From: Escherichia coli
Lineage (GTDB): Bacteria; Pseudomonadota; Gammaproteobacteria; Enterobacterales; Enterobacteriaceae
Strand: one strand, 5' to 3'
Assembly (NCBI RefSeq): GCF_044647545.1
Contig: NZ_CP172818.1
Length of the DNA stretch: 64,000 nucleotides
The notes under the pieces were generated by a model. It made no database searches and was not told the origin of the DNA. It was given only the letters and a program-made list of their open reading frames with translations. The position numbers were made by a program, and so were the translations under genes. Every line of letters begins with the position of its first letter. The stretch's first letter is position 1. Shown here one piece after another: positions 2,843 through 63,623 of the stretch.

Positions 2843-3139
2843 GATTGGGTCCTGGCGGATAAAAAACGCGCATACCTTAACGATAAGCGCGATGTTGTTC
2901 AAGTTGGATATGGGGTATGTATTCTTAATGATGTTGTCTTATCTCAAAACTTACGAAAGTAACGTTGTAGTTTATTCGAAAAACGAATTATTTGTAGTTC
3001 GATTGCAATATTCCTGAAAAATTTCTCCTCCTTCGAAATCTTTTCAGTAACAAAGATCATCCAAAACCTATAATCTTCACGGAACCTCATTAAGAGATCA
3101 TCCACGAGTCGTTATGAATATAATCCTCACCGTATTCGA

Positions 3140-4737
3140 TAAAAGAAATAAAAAATAAAACTAACAATCTATTGTTTTAAAAAAAAAAGGTTGGGAAAGA
3201 AGGGAAAAACAAGAAAAAAAATTTTTTCCCAAGAAAAAAAAAAACCGGGTAACAACAAACCGGGAAAAAAAAAAAAGGTTCCTGATAAAATACCCCCTAT
3301 CAACCGACAGAAACCTTGAACAACATAATACATTACCTATTCCTGAAATACTGAACAAGAAATAATTTTCGTTTTTTCCAACAATTAAAAATTCCAAAAA
3401 ATAAATCAGCAAAAAAATTCAAAAAAAATTCGGAAATTTTTCCAACCACAAAAAACTTATCCCAAAATCAGATGGCATTAATTTTAACCAAAAAAAGAAA
3501 ATGACCCCCCAATTTCGCCAAAGAAAAAAGGAAAAACCCCAAAAAAAATTTTTAAAATTAAAAAAAAAAAGAAATAATTAAGAATAATGATTTCTATATA
3601 TTAATGGCAACAAACAAATATTAAATTACAACACAACACAAACAAACTTTAAGTAAATTACTATACAAATCAATAACAATAACACCTTAACACACAAAAC
3701 AACCTACATTTCACAGTCATAACGAAAAAAATCATAAAACCACTCAATAAATAAAACACCGAAACAAATATAAAAAACATAAAAAAAAAAAAAAAAAAAA
3801 AACAAGAAAAAAAAAAAAAATAAAATAAAAATAAAAAAAAAAACGAAACGAAAAAATAATAAACAATAAAAGACCCCCACAAACAAACAAATCAAAACTA
3901 CACTCACTCCCCCTGATTGATTAAAAAAACATCTCTCAGATATAAAATACATAAAACAAACAAAAAAATAAATGAAAAAAAACAACAAATAAATAATTTA
4001 ATAATAAAAATAAAAATATTACGCAACAACAACTATCAACAAAAAAAATAAAAAAAAAAAACAAAGATAAGAAACGTAAGAAAAAAAAAAAAAAAAAAAA
4101 AAAAGACGAAAAAAAAAAAAAACTATGAATCCGAACAAGTAAAAAAAAAAAAAAAGAACAAACAATAACCAATCAAAAAAAAAAAAATAAATAAAAAAAA
4201 AAAATTCATTTAAAAAATGAAAAAAACACAAAAAAATAGAAAACAAAAAAAATAAAACAAACGGAAAAAAAAAAAAAAAAAAAAGAAGACTGAAGAAAAA
4301 AAATACTAAAAAAATAATTAATATTAAACCAAAAATAAAAAAAAATAAAAAATAAAAAACTAAAAAAACACAAAAAATCAACAAAAAATAAAAAAAAATA
4401 AACAAACCAAAAAAAAAAAAAAAAAAAAACGAAAACATTAAAATATATAACAAAATAAAAACTAAAAAAACAAAAAACAAACAAAAAAAAAAAAGAAATA
4501 ACAATAAAAAAAAAATTATAAACAACCAAAACAAATATAAAAAAAAAAACGAAAACAAAAAAAAATTAAAAAAAAAAAGAAAAATATAAAAAAAAAGAAA
4601 AAAGAAGAAAAATACAAAAAACAAAAAAATAAAAAAAAAAAAAAACACAAAAAAAAAAAAGAAAAACGAAAACAAGAAAAAAAAGAAAAATGTAAAATCA
4701 GCAAAATTCAGAAAATTTGAAAGAGAAAAAACCAAAA
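3140..4737. repeat. Poly(A)-dominated low-complexity tract on the + strand (T-rich on the - strand), non-coding
   Basis: Read directly: A runs longer than 20 nt (e.g. 3781-3802, 4081-4104) separated by single C/G/T or short motifs; frequent stop codons on the + strand; - strand gives only poly-Phe/Leu pseudo-ORFs. Boundaries approximate. Confidence 0.9.
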
Positions 4738-5028
4738 TTACTGAAAAAACACCACGATCTTGTTAAACATCGTCGGATTAGACTGATTACGCTGCACTTT
4801 CACCACATCTTCCAGCTTATCGATTTGGCTTATCACCTACTCCAGACGCTGGTCATCCTTGACCAGTAGCCAGATATGGCTTTTGTCGCTGTCCTGAATC
4901 GGCAGGCAGAGAATGCCTTCAACGTTAAAAGCGCGACGGGCAAAAAGCCCACAAACGTGAGTCATTACGCCCGGATGGTTGCGAACGGTGAGTTCGAGAA
5001 TCACGTTGTCATGAGTTGTGTTTTGCAT
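4738..5028 (-). pseudogene. ilvN: Acetolactate synthase I small (regulatory) subunit IlvN, interrupted by an in-frame TAG at codon 64
   Basis: Codons 1-63 read [63 protein letters not shown], then TAG (+ strand cta at 4837-4839), then 32 further in-frame ilvN-like codons ([32 protein letters not shown]) to TAA at 4738-4740. Confidence 0.85.
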
Positions 5029-5031
5029 GGC

Positions 5032-6720
5032 TTATTCCCCCACCATTTCAGTATTCGCCGCACCTGGCGGCACCATCGGGTACACTTTTTCTTCGGCATC
5101 AATACGCACATGGATCAGCGCCGGGCCAGGGCGATTGATGATTTCCTGTAATGCAGCCTGCGGATCGGTTTCGTTATTCAAATCACAGGTTTCGAGGCCG
5201 AATCCGGCGGCAATCTGCATAAAGTTGATTTTTCCCGGATAGGTAGCGGCAAAAACGCCCTGCTTGTAGAACAGACTCTGTTGCTGATGTACCAGCCCCA
5301 GCGCTTCGTTGTTCATCAGAATGATTTTGACATCCAGCTGATTTTCACTGGCGGTCGCCATCTCCTGAATATTCATCATCAGGCTGCCGTCGCCGGAGAA
5401 ACACAACACTTTGCGATCCGGGTTCGCCAGCGCTGCGCCAATCGCCGCAGGCAGGCCAAAGCCCATCGTGCCCAGCCCGCCGGAGGTCAGCCACTGGCGC
5501 GGGCGATTGAGCGGATAAGCCTGCGCCGTCCACATCTGATGCTGACCCACGTCGGTGGTGATAATCGCGCTGTCATCGACACAGGCGGCAACAGCGTTGA
5601 TCAGGCCGTAATGCGTTAACGGATCGCACGCTTTCGGGATTGGACACGGGAATTCGCGCTGCAAATCCGCCACCAACTGGTGCCACTCTGCACGCGGTTG
5701 CGCTTCCACCAGCGGGATCAATTGCGCCAGCACGTCATCAACATCCGCCTGAATCGCTACGTGCGGTTGCTTGATTTTGCCCAGCTCTGCACGGTCGATA
5801 TCGACATGAATGATTTTCGCATTCGGGCAGAACTGCTCGGTTTTGCCAATCGCCCGGTCATCAAAACGCGCACCGAGCACAATCAGCAGATCCGCCTCCT
5901 GCAGTATATAGTTGGTGCTGCGCACGCCGTGCATCCCCAGCATACCCAGCGACAGCGGATTCGCTTTTGGCAGCATGCCCAGCGCCATTAAGGTCATGGT
6001 AGTTGGCAATTGCGCTTTCTCTGCCAGTTCACGCACCCGTGCGGGCGCATTGATCACACCGCCGCCCAGATAAAGCACCGGGCGTTTGGCGGCGTTAATC
6101 ATTGCCGCTGCGTCACGAATGCTTTCTTCGCTAAAGGCGGGTGCGGCGGCTTTTTCTGCCATAGCTGGCTGTGCTTCAATCTCAAAAACCGCCGTTTGCA
6201 CATCTTTAGGAATGTCTATCCACACCGGGCCAGGGCGGCCTGATTGCGCAATGCGGAAGGCATCGCTCATGACCTGCGGGAGTTCTTCGATATGTCTGAC
6301 CAGATAGTTGTGTTTGGTGATGGGGATAGAGATGCCGTAGGTGTCCACTTCCTGGAAGGCGTCGGTGCCGATCATCGAGGCAGGAACCTGACCGGTGATG
6401 CAAATCAGCGGGATGGAATCCAGCCGCGCATCGGCAATGGCGGTCACCAGGTTAGTCGCACCCGGTCCGCTACAGGCCATACAGACCGCCGGTTTACCGT
6501 CGGTGCGCGCCATTCCCTGAGCGATAAACCCCGCGCCCTGTTCATGGCGAGCCAGAATATGGCGGATTTGCGTGCTTTGGCTTAAGGCATCGTAAACAGG
6601 CAGGATAGAACCGCCCGGAATGCCCGTCACAATCTTAATGCCCTGCTGTTCCAGGAAATGAACGATAAATTCTGCGCCGGTAAAGCGCTTACGCGTCGAT
6701 GTTGTGCCCGAACTTGCCAT
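5032..6720 (-). CDS. ilvB: Acetolactate synthase I large subunit IlvB (ThDP/FAD enzyme)
   Basis: 562-aa ORF with ThDP-binding acetohydroxyacid synthase signature (GDGSLMMNIQE...); immediately upstream of ilvN with a 3-nt gap. Confidence 0.95.
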   Translation of the reverse strand: MASSGTTSTRKRFTGAEFIVHFLEQQGIKIVTGIPGGSILPVYDALSQSTQIRHILARHEQGAGFIAQGMARTDGKPAVCMACSGPGATNLVTAIADARLDSIPLICITGQVPASMIGTDAFQEVDTYGISIPITKHNYLVRHIEELPQVMSDAFRIAQSGRPGPVWIDIPKDVQTAVFEIEAQPAMAEKAAAPAFSEESIRDAAAMINAAKRPVLYLGGGVINAPARVRELAEKAQLPTTMTLMALGMLPKANPLSLGMLGMHGVRSTNYILQEADLLIVLGARFDDRAIGKTEQFCPNAKIIHVDIDRAELGKIKQPHVAIQADVDDVLAQLIPLVEAQPRAEWHQLVADLQREFPCPIPKACDPLTHYGLINAVAACVDDSAIITTDVGQHQMWTAQAYPLNRPRQWLTSGGLGTMGFGLPAAIGAALANPDRKVLCFSGDGSLMMNIQEMATASENQLDVKIILMNNEALGLVHQQQSLFYKQGVFAATYPGKINFMQIAAGFGLETCDLNNETDPQAALQEIINRPGPALIHVRIDAEEKVYPMVPPGAANTEMVGE

Positions 6721-6765
6721 GCTCCAGTCCTTTTCTTCTGGGCCGACTTTCCGGGAGGTGCTTAA

Positions 6766-6798
6766 ACGAAAAACCCCGCCCGGTTTGCGCCGGCGGGG
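6766..6798 (-). terminator. ilvB attenuator (rho-independent terminator downstream of the leader peptide)
   Basis: GC-rich inverted repeat ccccgcc...ggcgggg (6774-6798) followed on the - strand by a U-run, between ivbL and ilvB. Confidence 0.75.
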
Positions 6799-6825
6799 TT
6801 TTGGAATCGTGTGTTGTTCCAGTCC

Positions 6826-6924
6826 CTACGGCGCATTGCCGACGACGACCACCACACGCACGACGACCACTGCGGCGGATGGCGCAGTTGGTAGTAGTTT
6901 TGCGTTGAGCATGGAAGTAGTCAT
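6826..6924 (-). CDS. ivbL: ilvB operon leader peptide (Val/Leu-rich attenuation peptide)
   Basis: Translated by hand: MTTSMLNAKLLPTAPSAAVVVVRVVVVVGNAP (32 aa), with the classic Val run. Confidence 0.9.
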   Translation of the reverse strand: MTTSMLNAKLLPTAPSAAVVVVRVVVVVGNAP

Positions 6925-7084
6925 TGGGGACCTTGTTGGTTTTGTGTTTAACAATATTTATACAAGCACAGCTTTACAGGGGAGACAATGGAAAATTTTT
7001 CAGCAAGGGAAAATTGAGGGGTTGATCACGTTTTGTACTGAATTGCGGGTAACAAAAAACCCCGCCGGAGCGAGGTTTCGTCAG

Positions 7085-9049: not shown

Positions 9050-9547
9050 TCACCGCAGCATCGTCATCAGCTCCATGGGAGAACGATGCTGCTTTATCAG
9101 ATCACGCATCACCCGCATATGCGGCGCGGAGTAAGAATAAAACGCCTGATAGCCCGCACAAAGCACGTTGTCTGGCGTCTCCTCCCGAGCGTGCGGGCAC
9201 AGGCGATGCCAGTCGCACGCCTGGCAGCCACGACGCGGTTGCGGGTTTTCGCTGCCACACCATTTTTGTAGGGTGGCGTCAAAAAGCTCAATCGAAATAC
9301 GACTGATATCTGCCCGTACCCAACACTCGAACAGGGCAATTAAAAATTTCCCCCACAGCTCTGCTGTCACCGAAGCGGCCGTCAGATCGCCCCGGTCATC
9401 AAATTCAAGATGGGGAATAAGCTGTACGGAGCGGATACCCCGTTGTTTGAAATTGTGATAAAAATCGGCAGGTTGCAGAGCATCCTTGTACTCTACAACC
9501 AGTTTATGCCTGTCCTCTTCAGCATCAATGACCTGACTTCCTGTCAT
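9050..9547 (-). CDS. yidF: YidF, Cys-rich SPASM-like protein (putative sulfatase-maturating enzyme lacking a radical-SAM core)
   Basis: 165-aa ORF with clustered cysteines (CGSENPQPRRGCQACDWHRLCPHA) but no CxxxCxxC motif; adjacent to sulfatase yidJ. Confidence 0.8.
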   Translation of the reverse strand: MTGSQVIDAEEDRHKLVVEYKDALQPADFYHNFKQRGIRSVQLIPHLEFDDRGDLTAASVTAELWGKFLIALFECWVRADISRISIELFDATLQKWCGSENPQPRRGCQACDWHRLCPHAREETPDNVLCAGYQAFYSYSAPHMRVMRDLIKQHRSPMELMTMLR

Positions 9548-9906
9548 GCGACTCTCTCAATAAATACGATAAGTTGATGTATATGCGTTACAGCAAACAG
9601 TATTGCGAGAGATAACACCGCGAGGGAGATCAAAAATTTGTCACGGACTACGTGAAATTGGGAAAAATCGCTATTCGTGACATCCATTAAATTGCGATTA
9701 CGGGTGTAGTGCCAGAGGATCAGCGCCACAATGGCGAGAATGCCAATCGAAATCCAGAATAACATGCCCGCCTGGTGCCAGTTGTGTTTGATAGCCAACG
9801 CCATCAACGCGCCGTAGCCCAGCATGGTACGAAACCACGCCAGTGATGTACGCTCCGGCTGCAGCCCTGGGTCGGCAATGCGTCTGGCTTTGCGGCTATC
9901 CGGCAT
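9544..9906 (-). CDS. yidG: Inner membrane protein YidG
   Basis: 120-aa hydrophobic ORF, overlapping yidF start and yidH stop. Confidence 0.8.
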   Translation of the reverse strand: MPDSRKARRIADPGLQPERTSLAWFRTMLGYGALMALAIKHNWHQAGMLFWISIGILAIVALILWHYTRNRNLMDVTNSDFSQFHVVRDKFLISLAVLSLAILFAVTHIHQLIVFIERVA

Positions 9907-10243
9907 ACAACACCAGTCCCATAACGATCACCGCCACGACCATCAATATTAAGCTGATGATTAATAAGCTGTTGGTGTAGGGCAGGTCCTCTTTCAGACG
10001 CATCGCTTTTTCATTGCGTAACCAGCGCAGGTAGCCATACATCGCTAACCCGCCGGAAAACAGACACAACAACAACGCCAGCAGTTCGCGAATGACGGGC
10101 GTGGCGAAATCTGGCGCAAGTTGATCAAGCCCAACCCCCGCCGCCAGAAAGCCTAGTGCGGTACGGATCCACGCCAGAAAAGTACGCTCATTAGCCAGCG
10201 AGAAGCGATAATCAGGTGCTTCTCCGAGGCGGGAAATTTTCAT
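9896..10243 (-). CDS. yidH: Inner membrane protein YidH (DUF202-like)
   Basis: 115-aa hydrophobic ORF with an AGGAG ribosome-binding site upstream. Confidence 0.8.
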   Translation of the reverse strand: MKISRLGEAPDYRFSLANERTFLAWIRTALGFLAAGVGLDQLAPDFATPVIRELLALLLCLFSGGLAMYGYLRWLRNEKAMRLKEDLPYTNSLLIISLILMVVAVIVMGLVLYAG

Positions 10244-10302
10244 TGTTGCTCCTTAACTGTTCCTCGCCGAAAAAAGTAGGCCAGGAAAACAGCAATAATG
10301 CA

Positions 10303-11796
10303 TCAGAACTTCTGTTTTTTCTCTTCCACCTTCACCCCTTGTGTCGGTAGGCCGGTGTCATAGTCGCGTACCACTGGCGAATAGCCATCTTGTGGGCGTG
10401 GACGAAACGCCCCCATCCAGCGCGGTCGTGCATCTTTACGCCACGGACGCAGACTCCATTGGTAACTGCGGAACGGATCGCGAATTTTGTCCATGTAATC
10501 CAATAAGGCGTCATGCATTTTGCGGCGAACGTCGGCAAAACGGATATCATCGATCAGATTATGCATTTCATTTGAATCATTACGGCGATCGTAAAGTTCA
10601 TCACTGGTGAAGAGGTTGAGTACCAGTTTAAAGTCATCCGTCACCCAGCAACGCACCGGAATAAAACCGCCAAAGCTGTCATGCTCAATCTCGTAGCGGT
10701 TAAATTCCACCATTACACCGCGTGGCTCTTTCACGGCAAGGATATTTTCCCCCGGCAGAATCTCTGGTTTTTCAATATCTGCCAGCGCCATCATTGTCGG
10801 CAGTAAATCGATATGACTGACTGGCGTATCGACCTGTCGCCGCTCCCCTTGCGGCGAACGGATGATCAGCGGAATGCGGGTGATGTCGTCATACATCGCC
10901 GCCCCTTTACTGATCAGCTTATGTGCGCCCATCATTTCGCCGTGATCGGAGGTATAAATAACCCACGTATTTTCACGTTGCTCTGGCGTTAAGGCATTGA
11001 TGACCCGTCCGATTTGGTCATCAACAAAGTCATTGCAGGCAAAATAGAGCGGATGGTGATAAAGCCCGTCATCACCGACTGGCGATGGCATCGCCTGCGC
11101 CCATAAGCGGTGATGTTCCGGTTTGTTCGCCAGGTCATCCTGTGATTTCTCGCCAAGTTCGTAGTAAAAATCAGCGTATTTCTCTAAATACTCCACCGGA
11201 CAGGTGAACGGGTGATGCGGCTCATCATACGAAACCACCATCAGGAAGGGTTCCTCGGCGCGCGCGGGCTGTTGCAGAAAATCTACCGCCCGATTGCTGA
11301 TGCGGTGCGCCCAGGTGAAGGTTTCGTCGATATGGTTCGCCTGTAAATCCTCAACGCTGTTTAGGCCATTGCGCCACAGGCTGATCTCTTTTTCCGTCAG
11401 TTCGCTAAGGTAGTTCGCCCCATCGAACCAGTAATCAGCGTCCCACTCCGGCGGACACTCGCCAGTGCCGAAATAGTCATGACCGTCGAGATGCCATTTG
11501 CCGATGTAACAGGTGTGATAGCCCGCATCCTTAAAGTAGCGTCCCATAGTGGAGATGTTTTTGCCCGGCGCGACGTTGTTGGTCCACGGGCCGGACTGGT
11601 TAGCGTAGATACCGGTAAACAGCCCGGCGCGCGCTGGTGTACAAACCGGTGAACAGGTGTAGGCGGAATTAAAGCGAATACTTTCCGCCGCCAGACTATC
11701 AATATTTTGCGTATTCAGCGGCTTACCGCTATAGCAACCGACCATATTGGTGGCCTGGGTATCGGTCATGATGAACAGAAAATTGGGGCGTTTCAT
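10303..11796 (-). CDS. yidJ: Cys-type sulfatase YidJ
   Basis: 497-aa ORF with sulfatase signature CTPAR (C-x-P-x-R) in ...AYTCSPVCTPARAGLFTG...; N-terminal MKRPNFLFIMTD metal-binding motif. Confidence 0.9.
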   Translation of the reverse strand: MKRPNFLFIMTDTQATNMVGCYSGKPLNTQNIDSLAAESIRFNSAYTCSPVCTPARAGLFTGIYANQSGPWTNNVAPGKNISTMGRYFKDAGYHTCYIGKWHLDGHDYFGTGECPPEWDADYWFDGANYLSELTEKEISLWRNGLNSVEDLQANHIDETFTWAHRISNRAVDFLQQPARAEEPFLMVVSYDEPHHPFTCPVEYLEKYADFYYELGEKSQDDLANKPEHHRLWAQAMPSPVGDDGLYHHPLYFACNDFVDDQIGRVINALTPEQRENTWVIYTSDHGEMMGAHKLISKGAAMYDDITRIPLIIRSPQGERRQVDTPVSHIDLLPTMMALADIEKPEILPGENILAVKEPRGVMVEFNRYEIEHDSFGGFIPVRCWVTDDFKLVLNLFTSDELYDRRNDSNEMHNLIDDIRFADVRRKMHDALLDYMDKIRDPFRSYQWSLRPWRKDARPRWMGAFRPRPQDGYSPVVRDYDTGLPTQGVKVEEKKQKF

Positions 11797-13508
11797 AGGC
11801 TATCCTTCGCGTCGGGAGTAAAGGTTACGGCTGGGTCGTGACGATGCCGCCAGCTGTCAAAAATCAGGTAGACAATCACTACGGCAGCGATGAAATAACT
11901 GATCATCGCTAACCAGCGCGTACCGTAGCCGCCGAATTCAGCCAGCCCGGCATAGACGCCAATCATAGCGAACAGGATGCCAATTGACGCGATCTTGACG
12001 TTTTTCCACGGTTTCATGTCCACCGCAAACGCATCTTTGAAGGTGAACGGCGTGGCGCGCGGTTTGATAAAACCGATCACCAGCATCACGACCACGTTGA
12101 TGCAGAACGTACAGGCCAGCACATAGAGGAAATGGAAGTCGAACTTCACCAGATAGTTGATGGTGATGTAGCTGATTATGCCAATCCCCATCGCCACTTT
12201 TGCCGCCAGCGCTGGAATGCGCGGGAAGAAAAAGCCCATAATGATGATGGTAACCAGCGGCACGTTGTAAATACCGTTGAGCTGTTTCATCCAGCTATAC
12301 AGCCCCTGCGGCGCGTTGGCGATCCACGGCGCGACCAGCACCGAAACGATAGCGATAAAGAAACCAAATTTGCGCCCGACGGTGACCAGCTGCTGCGGCT
12401 CGGCATTCTGGTTAATGATGCGACGGTAAATACCCATACTGAATAACGTACTGGCGCTATTCAGAAAGCCGTTGAAGGTACTGATCACCGCACCAAATAA
12501 CACCGCGCCGAAGAAACCCACCAGTGGCACTGGCAGAACGTTATTGACCAGCGTCGGGTAGGCCATGTCGGCTTTCGGTAGATCCTGATACAGATGAAAC
12601 GCAATCAACCCTGGCAGCACCAGTACCAGCGGGTCGAGCATTTTCAGCACCGCCGTTAACAGCGCCCCCTTTTGCCCTTCCGCCAGGCTTTTTGACGCCA
12701 GCGTGCGTTGCACGATGCCCTGATTTGTACACCAGTAAAAGGTGTTCACCAGAATCAAACCGGTAAATGCCGCGCCAATCGGCAAGGGATCGGTCGGGCC
12801 ACCGACTGAGTTTAATTTCTCGGCGTGAACGGTGGTGAGTTGCTCAATGCCCTGCATAAAGCTGCCCTTGCCCATCGCGATCAGGCCAAATATCGGCACC
12901 ATCAACCCGCCAATAACCAGCCCAATACCGTTGATGGAGTCCGCCACTGCCATTGCGCGCAGTCCGCCGATCACCGCATACAAAATTCCCGCCAGACCAA
13001 GCAAAATTACCAATAGCCAGATAGCCGCACCGTGAGAAATCTGTAGCGATTCCCCGACGTGAAACAGGCTGTTGAGCGCCAACGCGCCGGAGTAGAGAAC
13101 AATCGGCAGAAAGCAGACGCCGGTGGCAATGAGGAAGCAGAAGTCGATGATAATACGCGTCGTTTTATCATAACGTTCCTCCAGAAAATCGGGGATGGTG
13201 GCAATGCCGCGCTTCAGATAGCGTGGTAAAAAGATTAGCGCGAGGAAGATCAGCGTCACCGCTGAAGTCACTTCCCAGCCCATCACCGACATGCCGCTTT
13301 TGTAGGCCTGCCCGGAAAGACCAACCAGTTGTTCCGTGGAAAGGTTGGTTAACATTAACGAAGCGGCAATAACCGGCGCTTTTAGTGAACGTCCGGCAAG
13401 AAAATAGCCTTGTTGCGATCCGGTATCTGTTTTGCGAACCTTCCACCAGGTGATGATCGCCACCAGCAGCGTAAAACCGACAAAACTCAAGATTTGTAAC
13501 GAATTCAT
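11793..13508 (-). CDS. yidK: Sodium:solute symporter family transporter YidK
   Basis: 571-aa polytopic membrane ORF; 4-bp overlap with yidJ implies co-transcription. Confidence 0.9.
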   Translation of the reverse strand: MNSLQILSFVGFTLLVAIITWWKVRKTDTGSQQGYFLAGRSLKAPVIAASLMLTNLSTEQLVGLSGQAYKSGMSVMGWEVTSAVTLIFLALIFLPRYLKRGIATIPDFLEERYDKTTRIIIDFCFLIATGVCFLPIVLYSGALALNSLFHVGESLQISHGAAIWLLVILLGLAGILYAVIGGLRAMAVADSINGIGLVIGGLMVPIFGLIAMGKGSFMQGIEQLTTVHAEKLNSVGGPTDPLPIGAAFTGLILVNTFYWCTNQGIVQRTLASKSLAEGQKGALLTAVLKMLDPLVLVLPGLIAFHLYQDLPKADMAYPTLVNNVLPVPLVGFFGAVLFGAVISTFNGFLNSASTLFSMGIYRRIINQNAEPQQLVTVGRKFGFFIAIVSVLVAPWIANAPQGLYSWMKQLNGIYNVPLVTIIIMGFFFPRIPALAAKVAMGIGIISYITINYLVKFDFHFLYVLACTFCINVVVMLVIGFIKPRATPFTFKDAFAVDMKPWKNVKIASIGILFAMIGVYAGLAEFGGYGTRWLAMISYFIAAVVIVYLIFDSWRHRHDPAVTFTPDAKDSL

Positions 13509-13674: not shown

Positions 13675-17021
<3,347 letters not shown>

Positions 17022-23859: not shown

Positions 23860-25148
23860 CCAACGCGCTTCACATCGCCCACCAGCAGGATGTAAGAGAG
23901 CGCGCCAATCAACGCAACGGCGGAGATATAAACCAGTGCAGGCGCGAAACCGTAACCCTGCGCCAGGTACCCCACCACCAGAGGAACGGTGATGCCGCCC
24001 AGACCACCGACAAAGTTAAACACGCCGCCGGTTAAACCAATCAGGCGCATCGGTGCCAGAGAAGAGACCAGCGACCAGGTAATCGAAGCAAAACCGTTGC
24101 CGAAGAATGCCAGCGCCATCAGGCACATAATCATCATCGGATCGTTAGTGTAGTTAGCGCCCATAATGCAGGTGGAGATCAGCAAGCCGCAGATAATCGG
24201 CGTTTTACGCGCAAAGCCCAGTGAAAAGCCCTTACGTACCAGCAGATCCGCGACCCAGCCAGAGAGCAGGACGCCGACAAACGCCGCGAGGAACGGTACC
24301 GTGGTCATAAAGCCTGCTTTCAGCGCCGTGATTCCTTTTTCCTGGGTTAAATAGTTCGGGAACCAGGTTAAAAAAAACCACAGTGTAGAAGCCACCGCAA
24401 ATTGCCCAAGATAGACACCGATCAGTTTACGATGGAACACCAGTTTCCAGTCTTTGGCTGTTAACGGCTGACGCGCCTCTTTTTTCACCGGCGCATCACC
24501 ATCCACCAGACCGCCGCCATCACGAATGTAATCCAGTTCAGCTTTGCTGATGCCTTTAGTCAGGCGCGGCGGCTGATAAACCTTAAACCAAATCAGCGAC
24601 CAGATAATGCCGATACCACCGGTGACAATGAACACCCAGTGCCAGCTCAACATTTCCTGAATCCAGATCAGCAGCGGAGTCAGAAACGCCAGACCGACAA
24701 ACTGACCAGACGTATAAAAACCAACGGCAGAAGCGCGTTCATGTTCCGGGAACCAGCTGGTCACCATCCGGTTATTGGTCGGGAAAGCGGGCGCTTCGAA
24801 AATACCGGTTATCGCGCGCAGACCAATTAATGACATTAATCCCGTGGCAAAGCCCTGGAATAACGTCGCCACTGACCAGCCAAATATCGCAATAAAATAA
24901 GTCACGCGTGAACCTACGCGATCTAAAAACCAACCGCCGGGGATCTGACATAGCGTATAAAGCCAGGCGAAGGCCGAAAATACATAGCCCATTTCCGCTT
25001 TCGTAATACCGAACTCTTCCTGAATATGGGCGGAAGCCACGGCCAGGTTAGCGCGGTCAACATAACAAATGACCACCGTAATAAAGATCATCACCAGCGT
25101 CAGATAACGCCGACGCCCCGGCTTTGCTGCATTAACGGGAATATCCAT
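23856..25148 (-). CDS. dgoT: D-galactonate:H+ symporter DgoT (MFS)
   Basis: 430 aa from internal Met ([22 protein letters not shown]...). Confidence 0.9.
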
Positions 25149-25267
25149 AGCGAGCTTTCTCCAGATTTTGGGCATAGCGAAGCCGCTCACCATGCCCTGT
25201 AATTTACAGAGGGTTATATTTTTGTATTGCTGTTTTAGTGCCCGATGAGGGGCTTACGTGGCAGGAA

Positions 25268-26416
25268 TTACCACTCTGCTACGCTGTTATCTTCATGACG
25301 CCAGAGCGGATTACGCCAGTCCGGGGCATTTTTACTGAACTCAATAACTTTAGCTTCGTCGATTTCCACGCCTAAGCCCGGTTTCGTTAGCGGTTTAAAG
25401 AAGCCGCCAACCATGCTGAAGTCTTCTTTGTTTTTCACAAAGTCGAGTAACTCCGCGCCTTTGTTGTAATGAATTCCCATACTTTGTTCCTGAAGTACGG
25501 CGTTATAGGAAACAAAGTCGATATGCAGACAAGCTGCCAGTGCAATCGGTCCGAGCGGACAGTGCGGCGCAAGGGTCACGTCATAGGCTTCTGCCATTCC
25601 GGCAATTTTGTAGCATTCGGTAATACCGCCTGCATGAGAGAGATCTGGTTGCAGAATCGAAATACCGCCCGCCTCCAGCACGCGTTTAAAATCGAAACGT
25701 GAGAACATGCGTTCACCCGCCGCCAGAGGAATATGCGTTTGTGCCGCCAGTTTCGGGTAGTATTCGGCCTGTTCCGCCAGCACCGGCTCTTCAATAAACA
25801 GCGGGCGATACGGTTCCAGTTCTTTAATCAGTACTTTCGCCATCGGCGCGCTGACGCGACCGTGGAAATCAAGACCAAACTCAATCTGATTGCCAAAAGC
25901 TTCACGAATTTGTGCCACGGTGTTGACTGCCGCATCTACCGCGCGGGAGTTATCAATTAGCCCCAGTTCTTCACAACCGTTCAGTTTGAAGGTATCGAAG
26001 CCGATTTCGCGCAGGGTTTTAATGCCGTCGATAACATTCGCCGGACGATCGCCGCCGACCCAACTGTAGGCTTTAATTTTGTCACGAACCAGGCCACCCA
26101 TCAGTTGCCAGACCGGCGCATTCAGCACTTTACCTTTGATATCCCATAACGCCTGGTCGATCCCGGCGATGGCGCTCATCAGGATCGGACCGCCACGATA
26201 AAATCCGGCGCGATACATCACTTGCCATAAGTCATTGATGCGCGATGGATCCTGACCAATCAAATAGTCACTCAGCTCGTGAACTGCCGCTTCCACCGTA
26301 CGAGCGCGGCCTTCGATCACGGGCTCGCCCCAACCGACCACGCCTTCATCGGTTTCAATTTTCAGGAACATCCAGCGGGGAGGTAAACGATACGTAGTAA
26401 TTTTGGTGATTTTCAT
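25268..26416 (-). CDS. dgoD: D-galactonate dehydratase DgoD (enolase superfamily)
   Basis: 382-aa [35 protein letters not shown]... Confidence 0.95.
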
Positions 26417-27030
26417 TGCACTGCCTCTCGATACGCCTTAACAAATGCTGCTGCCTGCTGCGCGGTGCGTTCTACGGATTGCCCGGCGCGATAGAGATCG
26501 CTGCCTAAGCCCGCCCCTGCACAACCTGCGTCTATCCACTGCGCCAGGTTTTCTGGCGTCACACCGCCAACGGCAAAGACTGCGATGTCCTGCGGTAATA
26601 CCGCTTTTAACGCTTTGATGTATTGCGGACCAAAAGCCGATGACGGGAATATTTTCAGCGCCTGCGCGCCCGCGTCGATCGCGGTAAAGGCTTCAGTCGC
26701 CGTCGCGCAGCCGGGGCAAACGGTCATGCCATAGCCCACCGCGCGGCGGATCACTTCACTATGGATATTGGGCGTAACGATGAGCTGGCAGCCCATCCTG
26801 GCGAGCGTATCGACCTGTTCAGGTTTCAGTACCGTACCTGCGCCAATCAACGCCTTATCGCCGTACGCATCAACGATGGCGGGAATGCTTTTCTCCCATT
26901 GAGGGGAATTCAGCGGGATTTCAACCGCGTCGAACCCGGCGTCAATCACCGCGCCAACATGCGCCAGCGCCTCGTCGGGCGTAATACCGCGCAAAATGGC
27001 GATCAGCGGGAGTTTAGTTTGCCACTGCAT
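26413..27030 (-). CDS. dgoA: 2-dehydro-3-deoxy-6-phosphogalactonate aldolase DgoA
   Basis: 205-aa ORF, overlaps dgoD start. Confidence 0.95.
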
Positions 27031-27892
27031 GAGCGATGCTCCTTATACCAGCCTGAAATGCCTTGTCGCCCGCTACCACCGCCACGTCGCAACCCATCGC
27101 CTGAAAGGCTTGCTGGTAGCGCGCGGTCAGCGATGTTCCGGCGACAAGGGTGATGGCGTGTTGATGGGTCACATAGTCGCGCATACTGGCAACCTCTGCG
27201 CCAATCAACAAACCAGAGAGAAATTCGCTGACCTGTTCACGGGGAAGCGTTCCCAGCACATGCGATGCGCGAACTTCAAAAAGCTGCGGCAATATGGCGG
27301 GCGCATTAAGGCCACGCTCAAGGCCAGCCGCGAAGGCATCGGCAGAGTTTTCCTGCGGCGGCAAACCTGCGCCAATCAATGAGTGATTTAACAGTAAATG
27401 ATGTAATTCACCGGTCATTACGGTGCGAAAATCGTTGATTTGCTGGCTATCGGCCTGCACCCATTTGCAATGCGTACCGGGCATGACATAAAGAGAGGAA
27501 GGAGCCAAAGCACGCGCGCCGATCAATTGTGTTTCTTCGCCGCGCATCACATTGTGGTTATCGTCATGAGAAACGCATAATCCGGGAATAATCCAGATAT
27601 TGTCGCCAACAGACGTTAATTGTTCGCCAATAGATGAAAAACGGGCAGGAACAGATAAATACGGTGCAACTTTCCAGCCGACATTGCTGCCGACCATTCC
27701 TGCCATCACCACTGGCGTATTCTCTTCACGCCAGTCGGCCGTGACTTCTGCTAACACCGCAGCCGGAGATTTTCCGTTCAGGCGCGTGACGCCTGCTTCT
27801 GATTGCCTGCTCTCCAGGCAGTGGTCGCCCTGATAAAGCCAGGCGCGCAGATTGGTCGATCCCCAGTCAATTGCGATGTAGCGAGCTGTCAT
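27014..27892 (-). CDS. dgoK: 2-dehydro-3-deoxygalactonokinase DgoK
   Basis: 292-aa ORF, overlaps dgoA and dgoR. Confidence 0.95.
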   Translation of the reverse strand: MTARYIAIDWGSTNLRAWLYQGDHCLESRQSEAGVTRLNGKSPAAVLAEVTADWREENTPVVMAGMVGSNVGWKVAPYLSVPARFSSIGEQLTSVGDNIWIIPGLCVSHDDNHNVMRGEETQLIGARALAPSSLYVMPGTHCKWVQADSQQINDFRTVMTGELHHLLLNHSLIGAGLPPQENSADAFAAGLERGLNAPAILPQLFEVRASHVLGTLPREQVSEFLSGLLIGAEVASMRDYVTHQHAITLVAGTSLTARYQQAFQAMGCDVAVVAGDKAFQAGIRSIAHAVAN

Positions 27893-28578
27893 GTGATTTC
27901 CTTTAACCTTCGTGTCGAGCTGGCGATCATGGTAAGCGCCGCCTGCTCTGCCGCATCGCCGTCCTGATGCCGTATCGCATCAAACAGCGCCTTATGTTCC
28001 TGGAGCGTTTGCGGCATGTTGGCCTCATCACCCATCCAGGTTCGTTCAAATACCGCCCGCTGCAGCGAACTGATCGCAATGCTAAGTTGCTGTAACACCG
28101 GGTTATGCACCGACTGCAGCACCGCCTCGTGGTAGCGAATATCCGCTTCGTTAAACGCTTCGCGGTCCTGATTGTTGGCAATCATCTCGTTCAGCGCTGA
28201 TTCAATCTGCGCCAGATCGCTGGAAGTCGCGCGCTCTGCCGCCCAACGGGCAATCGCCGGTTCCACCAGATTTCGCACTTCGCTCATTGCACTGATAAGC
28301 CGTGGGTCGTAGTCGTTTTCCAGCACCCATTGCAGTACGTCAGTATCGAGGTAATTCCACTGATTACGCGGTGCCACAAACGCCCCGCGATAACGTTTCA
28401 TTTCAATCAGCCGCTTCGCCATCAGCGAACGGAACACCTCACGGATGATGTTGCGCGAGGTTGCAAACTCCTCACAGAGCTCCGCCTCAGCCGGAAGCGG
28501 CGAGCCTGGTACGTATTTGCCGTGAACGATCTGTTTACCCAGCGTAATGACGATGCGATCGGTTTTATTGAGAGTCAT
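27889..28578 (-). CDS. dgoR: GntR/FadR-family repressor of the dgo operon DgoR
   Basis: 229-aa ORF with N-terminal wHTH; first gene of dgoRKADT. Confidence 0.95.
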   Translation of the reverse strand: MTLNKTDRIVITLGKQIVHGKYVPGSPLPAEAELCEEFATSRNIIREVFRSLMAKRLIEMKRYRGAFVAPRNQWNYLDTDVLQWVLENDYDPRLISAMSEVRNLVEPAIARWAAERATSSDLAQIESALNEMIANNQDREAFNEADIRYHEAVLQSVHNPVLQQLSIAISSLQRAVFERTWMGDEANMPQTLQEHKALFDAIRHQDGDAAEQAALTMIASSTRRLKEIT

Positions 28579-28855
28579 GGAGAGTCCTTGTGCTCTGTAT
28601 GTTCTTCTCTACTTTACCCCGATCGATGCATAACGCGGCAACTTTGTAGTACCAGCGTGATGACGTTCGCGTTTTCCGTGTGCGTAATGTAGTACAAGCT
28701 TATATTACTGTACTACAATTTAGATCACAAAAAGAACAATGCATAAAAAAATGACATGCGTCGGGCAGAAATCTGAAAAGGGATAACAGGCGCTAAACAG
28801 GAGGGAAAGAAGAGTATGCTTTCAACGACTTAGCTACTCGTTTAAAGGATTAATC

Positions 28856-29512
28856 ATGAAGTTGAATTTTAAGGGATTTTTTAAGGCTGCCGGTTTGTGT
28901 TCTTTGGCATTTGCGTTGACCGGATGTATCACCTGGGGATTGGTTTCCAATACTGCAAGCCGTCCACATGCCGAGCAATGGCGGTCAGACACGATTAAGG
29001 GTTTATCGCTGGCAGAAGATAGTAACGGTACGAAAGGCTATGTTTTTGTTGGTGAATCATTGGACTATCTGTTGACCACCGGCGGCGATGAGGTAGTTAA
29101 AATGCTGAACGATCCGGCAATCCATGGTGAAAGAATCACCGTTTCTGATAACGCGAAATTTATTTTAAGCAGCAGTGATACTAATTTTTCTGGTTCAATA
29201 ACGCTCTATTACGACTGGGATAATGAGGAAGATAAAGCACTGGCGACACAATATGGTTTTATTTGTAATACCCAGCGTTGTACCTGGGCACTTGACGGCC
29301 TGAAAGGCTCTATCCACCAGAAAAATAAAAAAGCGGATTACTCAAACGTGATGGTTTTCCATCAACCCTTTACGGTGGGATTTTATAAGTACAAAGCAAC
29401 TGATGGCGTTCCGCGCGGCCTCGCTAATGCGCTGCTACCAGTCACTCTTACGCTGGATATAGTAACGTCACCACTCCAGTTCCTGATTTTATGCACGACC
29501 AGAAATTGTTAA
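28856..29512 (+). CDS. yidX: Putative lipoprotein YidX
   Basis: 218-aa ORF with signal/lipobox ([11 protein letters not shown]). Confidence 0.8.
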
Positions 29513-30881: not shown

Positions 30882-31015
30882 GATAATCACCTGTAAAGCG
30901 TTACGTGTTGACCCAAAAAGTATAGATCTGCGGGATGATAATTGCGGATTGCAGAAATAAAAAGGGCGGAGATGATCTCCCGCGACTAAGTCATTTTATC
31001 AGCAACAAAAAGCCA

Positions 31016-50089: not shown

Positions 50090-50755
50090 ATGTCCCAGAT
50101 AGAAGCGGTATTTTTCGACTGCGACGGTACGCTGGTCGATAGCGAGGTCATTTGCTCTCGCGCCTATGTCACGATGTTCAGGGAATTTGGCATTCACGTT
50201 GACCTGGAGGAGATTTTTACCCGTTTTAAAGGCGTAAAACTCTACGAAATCATCGACATCATCAGTAAAGAACAGGGCGTGACGATGATCCAGGCCGATG
50301 CCGAGCACGTTTACCGCGCAGAAGTGGCGCGTCTGTTTGATACCGAACTTGAGGACATCGCAGGAGCGAACGAATTGCTGGCGAGCATTAACGTGCCGAT
50401 GTGCGTCGTCTCTAACGGTCCGATCAACAAAATGCAGCATTCGCTGGGTAAGCTCAAGATGCTGCACTACTTCCCGGAAAAACTGTTCAGCGGCTACGAT
50501 ATCCAGCGTTGGAAGCCCGACCCGGCGTTAATGTTCCATGCGGCAAAAGCGATGAATGTAAACGTTGAAAACTGCATTCTGGTCGATGACTCCAGCGCCG
50601 GTGCGCAATCAGGGATAGATGCCGGAATGGAAGTGTTTTACTTCTGCGCTGACCCGCACAATAAACCGATCGTTCACCCGAAAGTCACCACATTTACCGA
50701 GCTGGCGCAGCTGCCTGCACTCTGGAAGGCACGCGGCTGGAATATAACGGCATAG
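50090..50755 (+). CDS. yieH: HAD-superfamily phosphatase YieH
   Basis: 221-aa ORF MSQIEAVFFDCDGTLVDSE (DxDGT HAD motif I). Confidence 0.9.
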   Translation: MSQIEAVFFDCDGTLVDSEVICSRAYVTMFREFGIHVDLEEIFTRFKGVKLYEIIDIISKEQGVTMIQADAEHVYRAEVARLFDTELEDIAGANELLASINVPMCVVSNGPINKMQHSLGKLKMLHYFPEKLFSGYDIQRWKPDPALMFHAAKAMNVNVENCILVDDSSAGAQSGIDAGMEVFYFCADPHNKPIVHPKVTTFTELAQLPALWKARGWNITA

Positions 50756-50821
50756 TTCTTCACACTCCCTTCACTTACCCCGCTTAAATTGGCGCTCAAA
50801 GGTAAGTAAAGGGAGTTTGAT

Positions 50822-51289
50822 ATGTCTGTTTCACGTCGGGTAATACATCACGGACTTTATTTTGCAGTTTTAGGACCGTTAATTGGTGTTCTGTTTCTTG
50901 TCCTCTACATATTCTTCGCAAAAGAACCGCTGGTTCTTTGGGTGATAATACATCCAATTTTTCTCTTATTGTCGATAACTACGGGAGCTATTCCTGCGTT
51001 GTTAACCGGTGTAATGGTTGCCTGTCTGCCGGAAAAGATCGGGTCACAGAAACGTTATCGTTGTCTGGCTGGTGGCATAGGTGGCGTCGTTATCACCGAG
51101 ATCTATTGTGCAGTTATTGTACATATTAAGGGCATGGCTTCCTCGGAGTTGTTTGAAAACATTCTTTCTGGTGACAGTCTCGTTGTCCGCATCATTCCTG
51201 CATTGCTGGCAGGTGTGGTGATGAGCAGAATCATTACCCGTCTACCCGGATTGGATATTTCATGTCCTGAAACAGACTCTTTAAGTTAA
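50822..51289 (+). CDS. cbrB: Inner membrane protein CbrB (CreBC-regulated)
   Basis: 155-aa hydrophobic ORF. Confidence 0.8.
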   Translation: MSVSRRVIHHGLYFAVLGPLIGVLFLVLYIFFAKEPLVLWVIIHPIFLLLSITTGAIPALLTGVMVACLPEKIGSQKRYRCLAGGIGGVVITEIYCAVIVHIKGMASSELFENILSGDSLVVRIIPALLAGVVMSRIITRLPGLDISCPETDSLS

Positions 51290-59973
<8,684 letters not shown>

Positions 59974-60130
59974 AGTCATTTATTAATGGTTTTTATAACG
60001 AACATCCAGGTTCGGAAATTAATTTAATTGCGTGCAGAGAAAATAGCAATGCGCTATTGATAAAAATATGACCATGCTCGCAGTTATTAACTTTGTGTAA
60101 TTTTAGGAATTTATAAAGTTATATATAACA

Positions 60131-60160
60131 AATCCCAATAATTAAGTTATTGGGATTTGT
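60131..60160 (-). terminator. Rho-independent terminator after phoU
   Basis: Hairpin aaatcccaataa...ttattgggattt just downstream of the phoU stop. Confidence 0.6.
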
Positions 60161-60168
60161 CTGGTGAA

Positions 60169-60894
60169 TTATTTGTCGCTATCTTTTCCGGCCAGCAGTT
60201 TATCCAGCTCATCACCGCCTACATGACGGAAATCCTGCCCCTTCACGTAGTAGAAGATAAACTCACAAATATTCTGGCAGCGGTCGCCGATACGTTCGAT
60301 TGAACGCGCACAGAATAGCGCGGTAAGTACGCTCGGAATGGTGCGCGAATCTTCCATCATGTAGGTCATCAGTTGACGAACAATACCTTCGTACTCCTGA
60401 TCGACTTTTTTATCTTCCCGATAAATACGTACCGCTTCGTCAATGTCCATCCGCGCGAACGCGTCCAGCACGTCGTGCAGCATCTGGATGGTATGACGGC
60501 CCAGCGACTCCAGACTTACCAGCAACGGCTGATGCTGCTGGGAGAATTTCTCCAGCGCAGTACGGCAGATTTTGTCCGCCACGTCGCCAATACGCTCCAG
60601 CTCGGCAATGGTTTTACTGATCACCATAACCAGACGCAGGTCGCTCGCCGTCGGCTGACGTTTGGCGATAATGCGCACGCAAGCTTCATCGATCGCCACT
60701 TCCATCATGTTGACGTTCTTGTCGCCTTCGATGACGCGCTTCGCCAGATCGCTGTCCTGGTTATGCATCGCGGTGATTGCATCAGAAAGCTGCTGCTCCA
60801 CCATGCCGCCCATGGTCATCACCTGCGTGCGGATACTTTCCAGTTCGGCGTTGAACTGGCCGGAAATATGTTTATTAAGATTGAGACTGTCCAT
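60169..60894 (-). CDS. phoU: Phosphate signalling protein PhoU
   Basis: 241 aa [36 protein letters not shown]... Confidence 0.97.

Positions 60895-60908: not shown

Positions 60909-63623
<2,715 letters not shown>

Follow-up and report, generated by a model that had tools for sequence, protein, structure and literature searches.

A described counterpart of the locus analysed here is found in Escherichia coli K-12 MG1655 (NC_000913.3), in which the yidH (b3676; 3855960–3856307, minus strand) and yidJ (b3678; 3856911–3858404, minus strand) genes are separated by a gap of 603 bp occupied by yidI (b3677; 3856415–3856864, plus strand). The yidI gene is oriented divergently to yidH and convergently to yidJ, and its product of 149 aa represents a family of uncharacterised inner-membrane proteins (PF27700). 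The same yidH–yidI–yidJ arrangement was observed in the K-12-like strain included in the comparisons. YidI is listed in a table of strain-variable genes (PMC10304320). A literature search revealed no study on the function of YidI or on a presence/absence polymorphism of yidI, the queries for 'yidI' being swamped by a personal name. The YidH protein was regarded as a candidate D-alanine exporter and did not lower D-alanine levels (PMC10299036).

Gene Order at the yidH–yidJ Locus

In the analysed window (the whole stretch of 64,000 nucleotides of E. coli DNA), the emrD gene on the plus strand precedes yidF, yidG, yidH, yidJ and yidK, all five of which were assigned to the minus strand in the list of open reading frames (ORFs). 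The features of the region are as follows:

9050..9547, minus strand: yidF, 165 aa, the short Escherichia form of a sulfatase-maturase homologue (ORF list; no Pfam match)
9544..9906, minus strand: yidG, DUF202 protein, 120 aa, overlapping yidH by 11 nt (ORF list and Pfam search)
9896..10243, minus strand: yidH, intact DUF202 inner-membrane protein, 115 aa (PF02656, E = 2.8e-19; 100% amino acid identity to the K-12-like YidH)
10244..10302, no strand: yidH–yidJ gap, yidI-less junction (603 bp at the K-12 equivalent)
10244..10254, minus strand: retained 11 nt preceding the yidH start codon, TGTTGCTCCTT (read on the yidH strand as AAGGAGCAACA), the yidH Shine-Dalgarno region (identical to K-12 gap nt 1–11)
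10255..10302, no strand: interior 48 nt replacing ~592 bp (the yidH–yidI intergenic region, yidI and a hairpin), with no significant similarity to the yidI region
10303..11796, minus strand: yidJ, intact sulfatase, 497 aa, stop codon TCA at 10303–10305 (PF00884, E = 2.8e-71; 99% amino acid identity to the K-12-like YidJ)
11793..13508, minus strand: yidK, sodium:solute symporter, 571 aa, overlapping the yidJ start by 4 nt (ORF list and annotation of a relative)

Measured between the start codon of yidH and the stop codon of yidJ in the sequence and the ORF list, the gap has 59 bp. Three ORFs touch it: 10212–10295 (minus strand, 27 aa), 10216–10350 (plus strand, 44 aa) and 10298–10363 (plus strand, 21 aa). 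A yidI ORF of ~149 codons on the plus strand was sought between yidH and yidJ and not found, none of the ORFs in the gap exceeding 44 codons. A tblastn search of the entire 64 kb window with a K-12-type YidI query returned noise only (best E = 0.65). The original prediction, based on the yidH–yidI–yidJ order of K-12, had proposed that yidI is missing between yidH and yidJ in this sequence. Both the order and the absence were borne out, and the MG1655 coordinates place yidI between yidH and yidJ. We infer that the strain makes no YidI.

The same prediction regarded the ATG at position 10298 as a possible remnant of the yidI start, which was refuted by the position of this codon, its motif context, the overlap with yidJ and the putative product. 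The start of yidI, a plus-strand gene, is on the yidH side, 108 nt away from the start codon of yidH. Position 10298 is on the yidJ side, in the part of the gap expected to match the 3' flank of yidI. The ATG is a part of AATAATGC, a motif that in K-12 belongs to the left hairpin arm, just past the yidI stop codon. From position 10303 on, the frame runs antisense to the conserved C-terminal codons of yidJ, and the product, MHQNFCFFSSTFTPCVGRPVS, has no similarity to YidI. The 21-codon ORF was, therefore, rejected as spurious.

The neighboring yidH contains a 20-nt motif (GCCAGCGAGAARCGRTARTC) whose DNA sequence is also conserved in the DUF202 genes of Actinobacteria such as Streptomyces and Micromonospora. 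The actinobacterial matches to this motif were true homologues of YidH, with 35–60% amino acid identity among the matches listed.

Structure of the Junction

The alignment with K-12 showed that the homology passes through the yidH start codon into 11 nt of upstream sequence, ends there and restarts at the yidJ stop codon. The retained TGTTGCTCCTT is the complement of the yidH Shine-Dalgarno sequence AAGGAG, and CTCCTT was invariant in five genera, including Escherichia, Citrobacter and a Klebsiella-like genome. Relative to K-12, the window lacks the ~107-nt yidH–yidI intergenic region, yidI itself and a strong hairpin located between yidI and yidJ. For this hairpin of K-12, the folding energy was −27.5 kcal/mol (z = −5.1), and the value for the gap of the window was −20 kcal/mol (z = −1.9).

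The 48 interior bases were compared by local alignment with the yidI regions of K-12, E. albertii, E. marmotae, C. youngae and the Klebsiella-like genome, and as many as 102 of 300 shuffled sequences scored as well. In the corresponding test against the gaps of other species that contain REP elements, the best match (AAAAGTAGGCCAGGAAA versus AAACGTAGGCCGGGTAA) was equalled by 66 of 300 shuffles. A REP remnant was also considered on the basis of GTAGGCCAGG, which resembles GTAGGCCGGG of the REP elements in Citrobacter/Pluralibacter gaps, a match that is not significant. A global alignment with cheap gap extension traced the interior bases to yidI through many matches of 4–11 nt and was discarded as overfitting. 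At the yidJ-proximal end, CAGCAATAATGC (10290–10301) may correspond to the K-12 sequence CAGCCTGAATAATGC just after the yidI stop codon, a colinear 12-nt match that is too short for significance.

No sign of a deletion mediated by an insertion sequence (IS) was found in the window sequence and the ORF list, the 59-bp gap being too short for an IS and containing no transposase ORF. Since the 48 interior bases gave no significant alignment with any sequence of the yidI region, the breakpoints are putative, and the junction could represent a simple deletion with filler or several steps of decay.

Frequency of the yidI-Less Junction in E. coli

The frequency of the junction was surveyed in 5426 complete RefSeq genomes of E. 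coli, 5420 of which have the locus. A genome was considered a carrier when at least 80% of the 121-nt junction query was covered. Such screening resulted in 1412 carriers (26% of the 5426 genomes), among them a strain of O25b:H4-ST131, with an identity to the window query of 93.5–95.2%. Most of the 603-bp yidI segment was detected in 3716 genomes and some of it in 4007. The two sets, 1412 and 4007, sum up to 5419 against the 5420 genomes with the locus, which indicates that the two states partition the species and that yidI was not relocated. RefSeq annotates yidH and yidJ as neighbors in the yidI-less genomes. The common form of the junction was also present in 13 metagenome contigs, all of which had matches to yidH and yidJ and none to yidI.

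The same data bear on the idea that yidI was moved to another locus in the source strain, which would leave the same gap between yidH and yidJ. The part of its genome inspected, i.e. the 64 kb window, holds no YidI-like sequence, and in the 5426 genomes yidI DNA occupied one place per genome (median) and two at the most, with yidI-less and yidI-bearing sets accounting for the genomes with the locus. Relocation is thus highly improbable.

The absence of yidI is, therefore, a common and previously annotated presence/absence polymorphism belonging to ordinary strain-to-strain variation, and the original prediction went too far in treating it as possibly unusual. Its importance is low, as yidI is an uncharacterised and dispensable accessory gene, and the annotations of thousands of public genomes already show whether it is present or absent. 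It serves as a caution that the gene order of K-12 is not the species norm at the yidH–yidJ locus.

Origin of the yidI-Less Allele

Homologues of YidI (PF27700) were identified in E. albertii, E. marmotae, Citrobacter, Klebsiella, Leclercia, Enterobacter, Yokenella and Intestinirhabdus. The outgroups compared at the locus were E. albertii, E. marmotae, Citrobacter youngae and a Klebsiella huaxiensis-like genome, the closer E. fergusonii and E. ruysiae not being among the matches listed, and in all four yidI adjoined yidH in the same orientation. At the DNA level, the identity between K-12 and the two species E. albertii and E. marmotae was 85.8% and 88.9% for yidI, 90.8% and 90.8% for yidH, and 82.7% and 86.1% for yidF, respectively, a pattern expected under vertical inheritance. 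The divergence of yidI in step with its neighbors, together with its shared position in the relatives, indicates that the presence of yidI is ancestral in Escherichia and the state of the window derived.

The 59-bp gaps of FDAARGOS_497 and Ecol_244 differed at one base of 59, with flanks differing by ~3–4%. Such a nearly identical gap on diverged flanks implies a single, old deletion event. Judged by their flanks, the yidI-less genomes do not form one group, and the flanks of the window were ~98% (97–99%) identical to K-12 in comparison with 95.5% to the haplotype of the Ecol_244 type. A single origin consequently requires recombination or the sorting of an old polymorphism.

The opposite polarity was also considered, in which absence is ancestral, yidI was inserted in the lineage from which K-12, O157 and related strains descend, and the window never had the gene. 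The diverged flanks of the yidI-less E. coli genomes would fit such a history, as would the interior of 48 nt devoid of a recognisable yidI remnant and the occurrence of yidJ directly beside yidH, with no yidI, in Citrobacter werkmanii, C. sedlakii, Pseudocitrobacter, Pluralibacter and Superficieibacter. However, an insertion confined to this lineage is at odds with the same place and orientation of yidI in the four outgroups and with its divergence paralleling that of yidH and yidF. Moreover, independent losses of yidI were seen directly in E. coli (strains 254D-1 and HH97), and the gaps of the yidI-less Citrobacter hold a REP-like element resembling the one downstream of C. youngae yidI. Ancestral absence was, therefore, judged unlikely.

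The window very probably carries a common, old deletion allele of the yidFGH–yidI–yidJK cluster, of single origin and derived from an ancestor possessing yidI. The ancestral arrangement in Escherichia would have consisted of yidH (minus strand), a divergent intergenic region of ~107 nt, yidI (plus strand), a strong hairpin and yidJ (minus strand). The deletion would have removed the whole segment between the yidJ stop codon and the 11 nt retained in front of yidH, and 48 nt of untraceable sequence now occupy its place. Both neighbors are intact, yidH with its Shine-Dalgarno sequence and start codon and yidJ with its stop codon. Having arisen once, the allele would now reside on diverged E. coli backgrounds.

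An observation on the adjacent gene was made in an E. albertii contig, in which yidJ (5499–6992) was 95.7–96.5% identical to E. coli yidJ at the DNA level, i.e. in the range found between E. coli strains, and the identity of the adjacent yidH, yidI and yidF was only 83–91%. This suggests a putative exchange of yidJ between E. albertii and E. coli.

Sequence Quality and Differences from FDAARGOS_497

The window was ~99.8–99.9% identical overall to FDAARGOS_497, with no substitutions at ~5–24 kb and a handful of indels in the aligned parts of the 64 kb. Its gap corresponds to the common yidI-less gap sequence apart from three small indels that distinguish it from all other copies: GTA is missing after position 10254, an A is added at 10275 and AA is added at 10286–10287. 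These changes fall within 34 nt and their net effect on length is zero. The exact gap variant was found in none of the 5426 complete genomes (best junction identity of 95.2%) and in no metagenome contig, the common variant, used as a positive control, giving 13. The three indels may represent one complex mutation or a sequence error.

Elsewhere in the window, a 1.6-kb stretch between uhpA and ilvN (within 2923–4740) consists of 67% A, with the GC content declining steadily from 39% to 11%. At 2923–3134, about 33 single-base gaps, nearly all of G, were detected relative to the closest relative, and the sequence beyond was unalignable until normal sequence resumed abruptly at 4738. The closest genome has at the uhpA–ilvN site a 3.1-kb AT-rich island with two hypothetical genes. 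No match to the A-rich stretch was found in other complete E. coli genomes, and the stretch appears to be a corrupted part of the source sequence or an artefact. The corrupted appearance of 3150–4740 calls for caution as to the reality of the indels in the gap.

An assembly or sequencing artefact, i.e. a collapsed or mis-joined region, could in principle account for the missing yidI as well, and the corrupted-looking region (3150–4740, 67% A, GC falling to 11%) together with three indels seen in no other genome would be in line with it. Nevertheless, the yidI-less junction recurs in 1412 independent complete genomes and 13 metagenome contigs, and yidH and yidJ are annotated as adjacent by RefSeq in genomes bearing the junction. 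An artefact was thereby refuted for the deletion itself and has a negligible probability as the cause of the absence of yidI.

Other differences from FDAARGOS_497 were scattered along the window. At 14779–14803, ~23 nt stand in place of ~500 nt of FDAARGOS_497, inside a gene annotated there as 6-phospho-alpha-glucosidase, and the allele of this gene in the window probably has an internal deletion or differs in another way. The region 50749–60182 (9.4 kb) did not align to the corresponding 7.4 kb of FDAARGOS_497, which hold hypothetical genes together with a type III effector gene and the pst operon, including phoU and pstB; it is a replaced or variable segment. All 56 substitutions relative to FDAARGOS_497 fell into two clusters (4754–4960 and 24010–28999), plus a lone one at position 3144; otherwise the aligned window was identical. 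The two clusters look like short recombination tracts in a clonal background. Further gaps comprised 9 nt at 30980 and 2 nt at 61772.

Predicted Consequences for Expression

With the deletion, yidHGF would lose its own upstream region and the hairpin separating it from yidKJ. As a consequence of this loss and the head-to-tail orientation of the genes, it is plausible that the co-directional yidK–yidJ–yidH–yidG–yidF constitute one predicted transcription unit. Promoter consensus scans of both alleles found no promoter-like site. The terminator-like calls did not exceed the expectation from shuffled sequences (1 and 4), and the obvious K-12 hairpin was missed, so that neither scan speaks for or against co-transcription.

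According to a broader proposal, the deletion would fuse yidKJ (sulfatase and symporter) with yidHGF (DUF202 proteins and maturase homologue) into one operon, carriers of the allele would regulate the cluster in another way than K-12, and the three private indels on a nearly clonal background would mark the spacer as a mutable element tuning yidH expression. We consider this combined proposal unlikely. If the operon fusion were real, the locus would provide a small example of a deletion rewiring regulation.

Comparison with Other Arrangements of the Cluster

Several other losses were noticed in the yidF–yidL cluster. In strain 254D-1, an IS200/IS605 element (tnpA and tnpB) stands in place of yidI through yidL. 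In Ecol_244, yidJ is split into two CDS, and E. marmotae has no yidJ after yidI, yidE following directly. No Pfam domain was found in E. coli YidF (165 aa), which aligned only to the C-terminal ~213 aa of a radical-SAM/SPASM protein of 370 aa whose gene occupies the corresponding position in Citrobacter youngae (35% identity). The E. coli protein thus appears to lack the N-terminal part predicted to bear the radical-SAM domain in the C. youngae protein. The short yidF, the split yidJ, the IS replacement and the yidJ missing after yidI in E. marmotae together suggest that the cluster is eroding in Escherichia.

A second, rare yidI-less allele was identified in HH97 (at 2462–2546 of the sequence compared) and HH45 (2 of 5426 genomes). 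It resembles the allele of the window in the removal of yidI, the intact yidH and yidJ and the presence of a short unexplained filler. In contrast to the window, its gap has 85 bp and retains the K-12 hairpin in full (43 nt), together with 20 nt in front of yidH. About 22 nt of this gap (CCGTATCGGGGCACTGTTCAGC) could not be traced to the K-12 yidI sequence. The flanks of the HH97/HH45 allele were 100% identical to K-12-like strains, which points to a separate, recent event. Because of these flanks, the HH97 allele was rejected as an intermediate toward that of the window.

Outside Escherichia, C. werkmanii, C. sedlakii, Pseudocitrobacter and Pluralibacter share with the window the co-directional yidK–yidJ–yidH–yidG–yidF order and a short gap (32–114 bp) with no yidI. 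The sequences of these gaps are unrelated to the 48 nt of the window, and the Citrobacter gaps hold REP-like elements.

In relation to K-12 MG1655, the window has the same flanking genes (emrD, yidF, yidG and yidH on one side and yidJ, yidK and yidL on the other) in the same order and orientation, with an identical yidH Shine-Dalgarno sequence and yidJ stop codon and flanks of 97–99% identity. The two differ in the segment between yidH and yidJ, which in MG1655 has 603 bp with yidI (149 aa, PF27700) and the strong hairpin, whereas the 59 bp of the window contain neither. A further counterpart is the yidI-less junction annotated in RefSeq genomes such as FDAARGOS_497, ECONIH1, Ecol_244 and the O25b:H4-ST131 strain, in which the breakpoints, the 59-bp length of the gap and the filler are the same as in the window.
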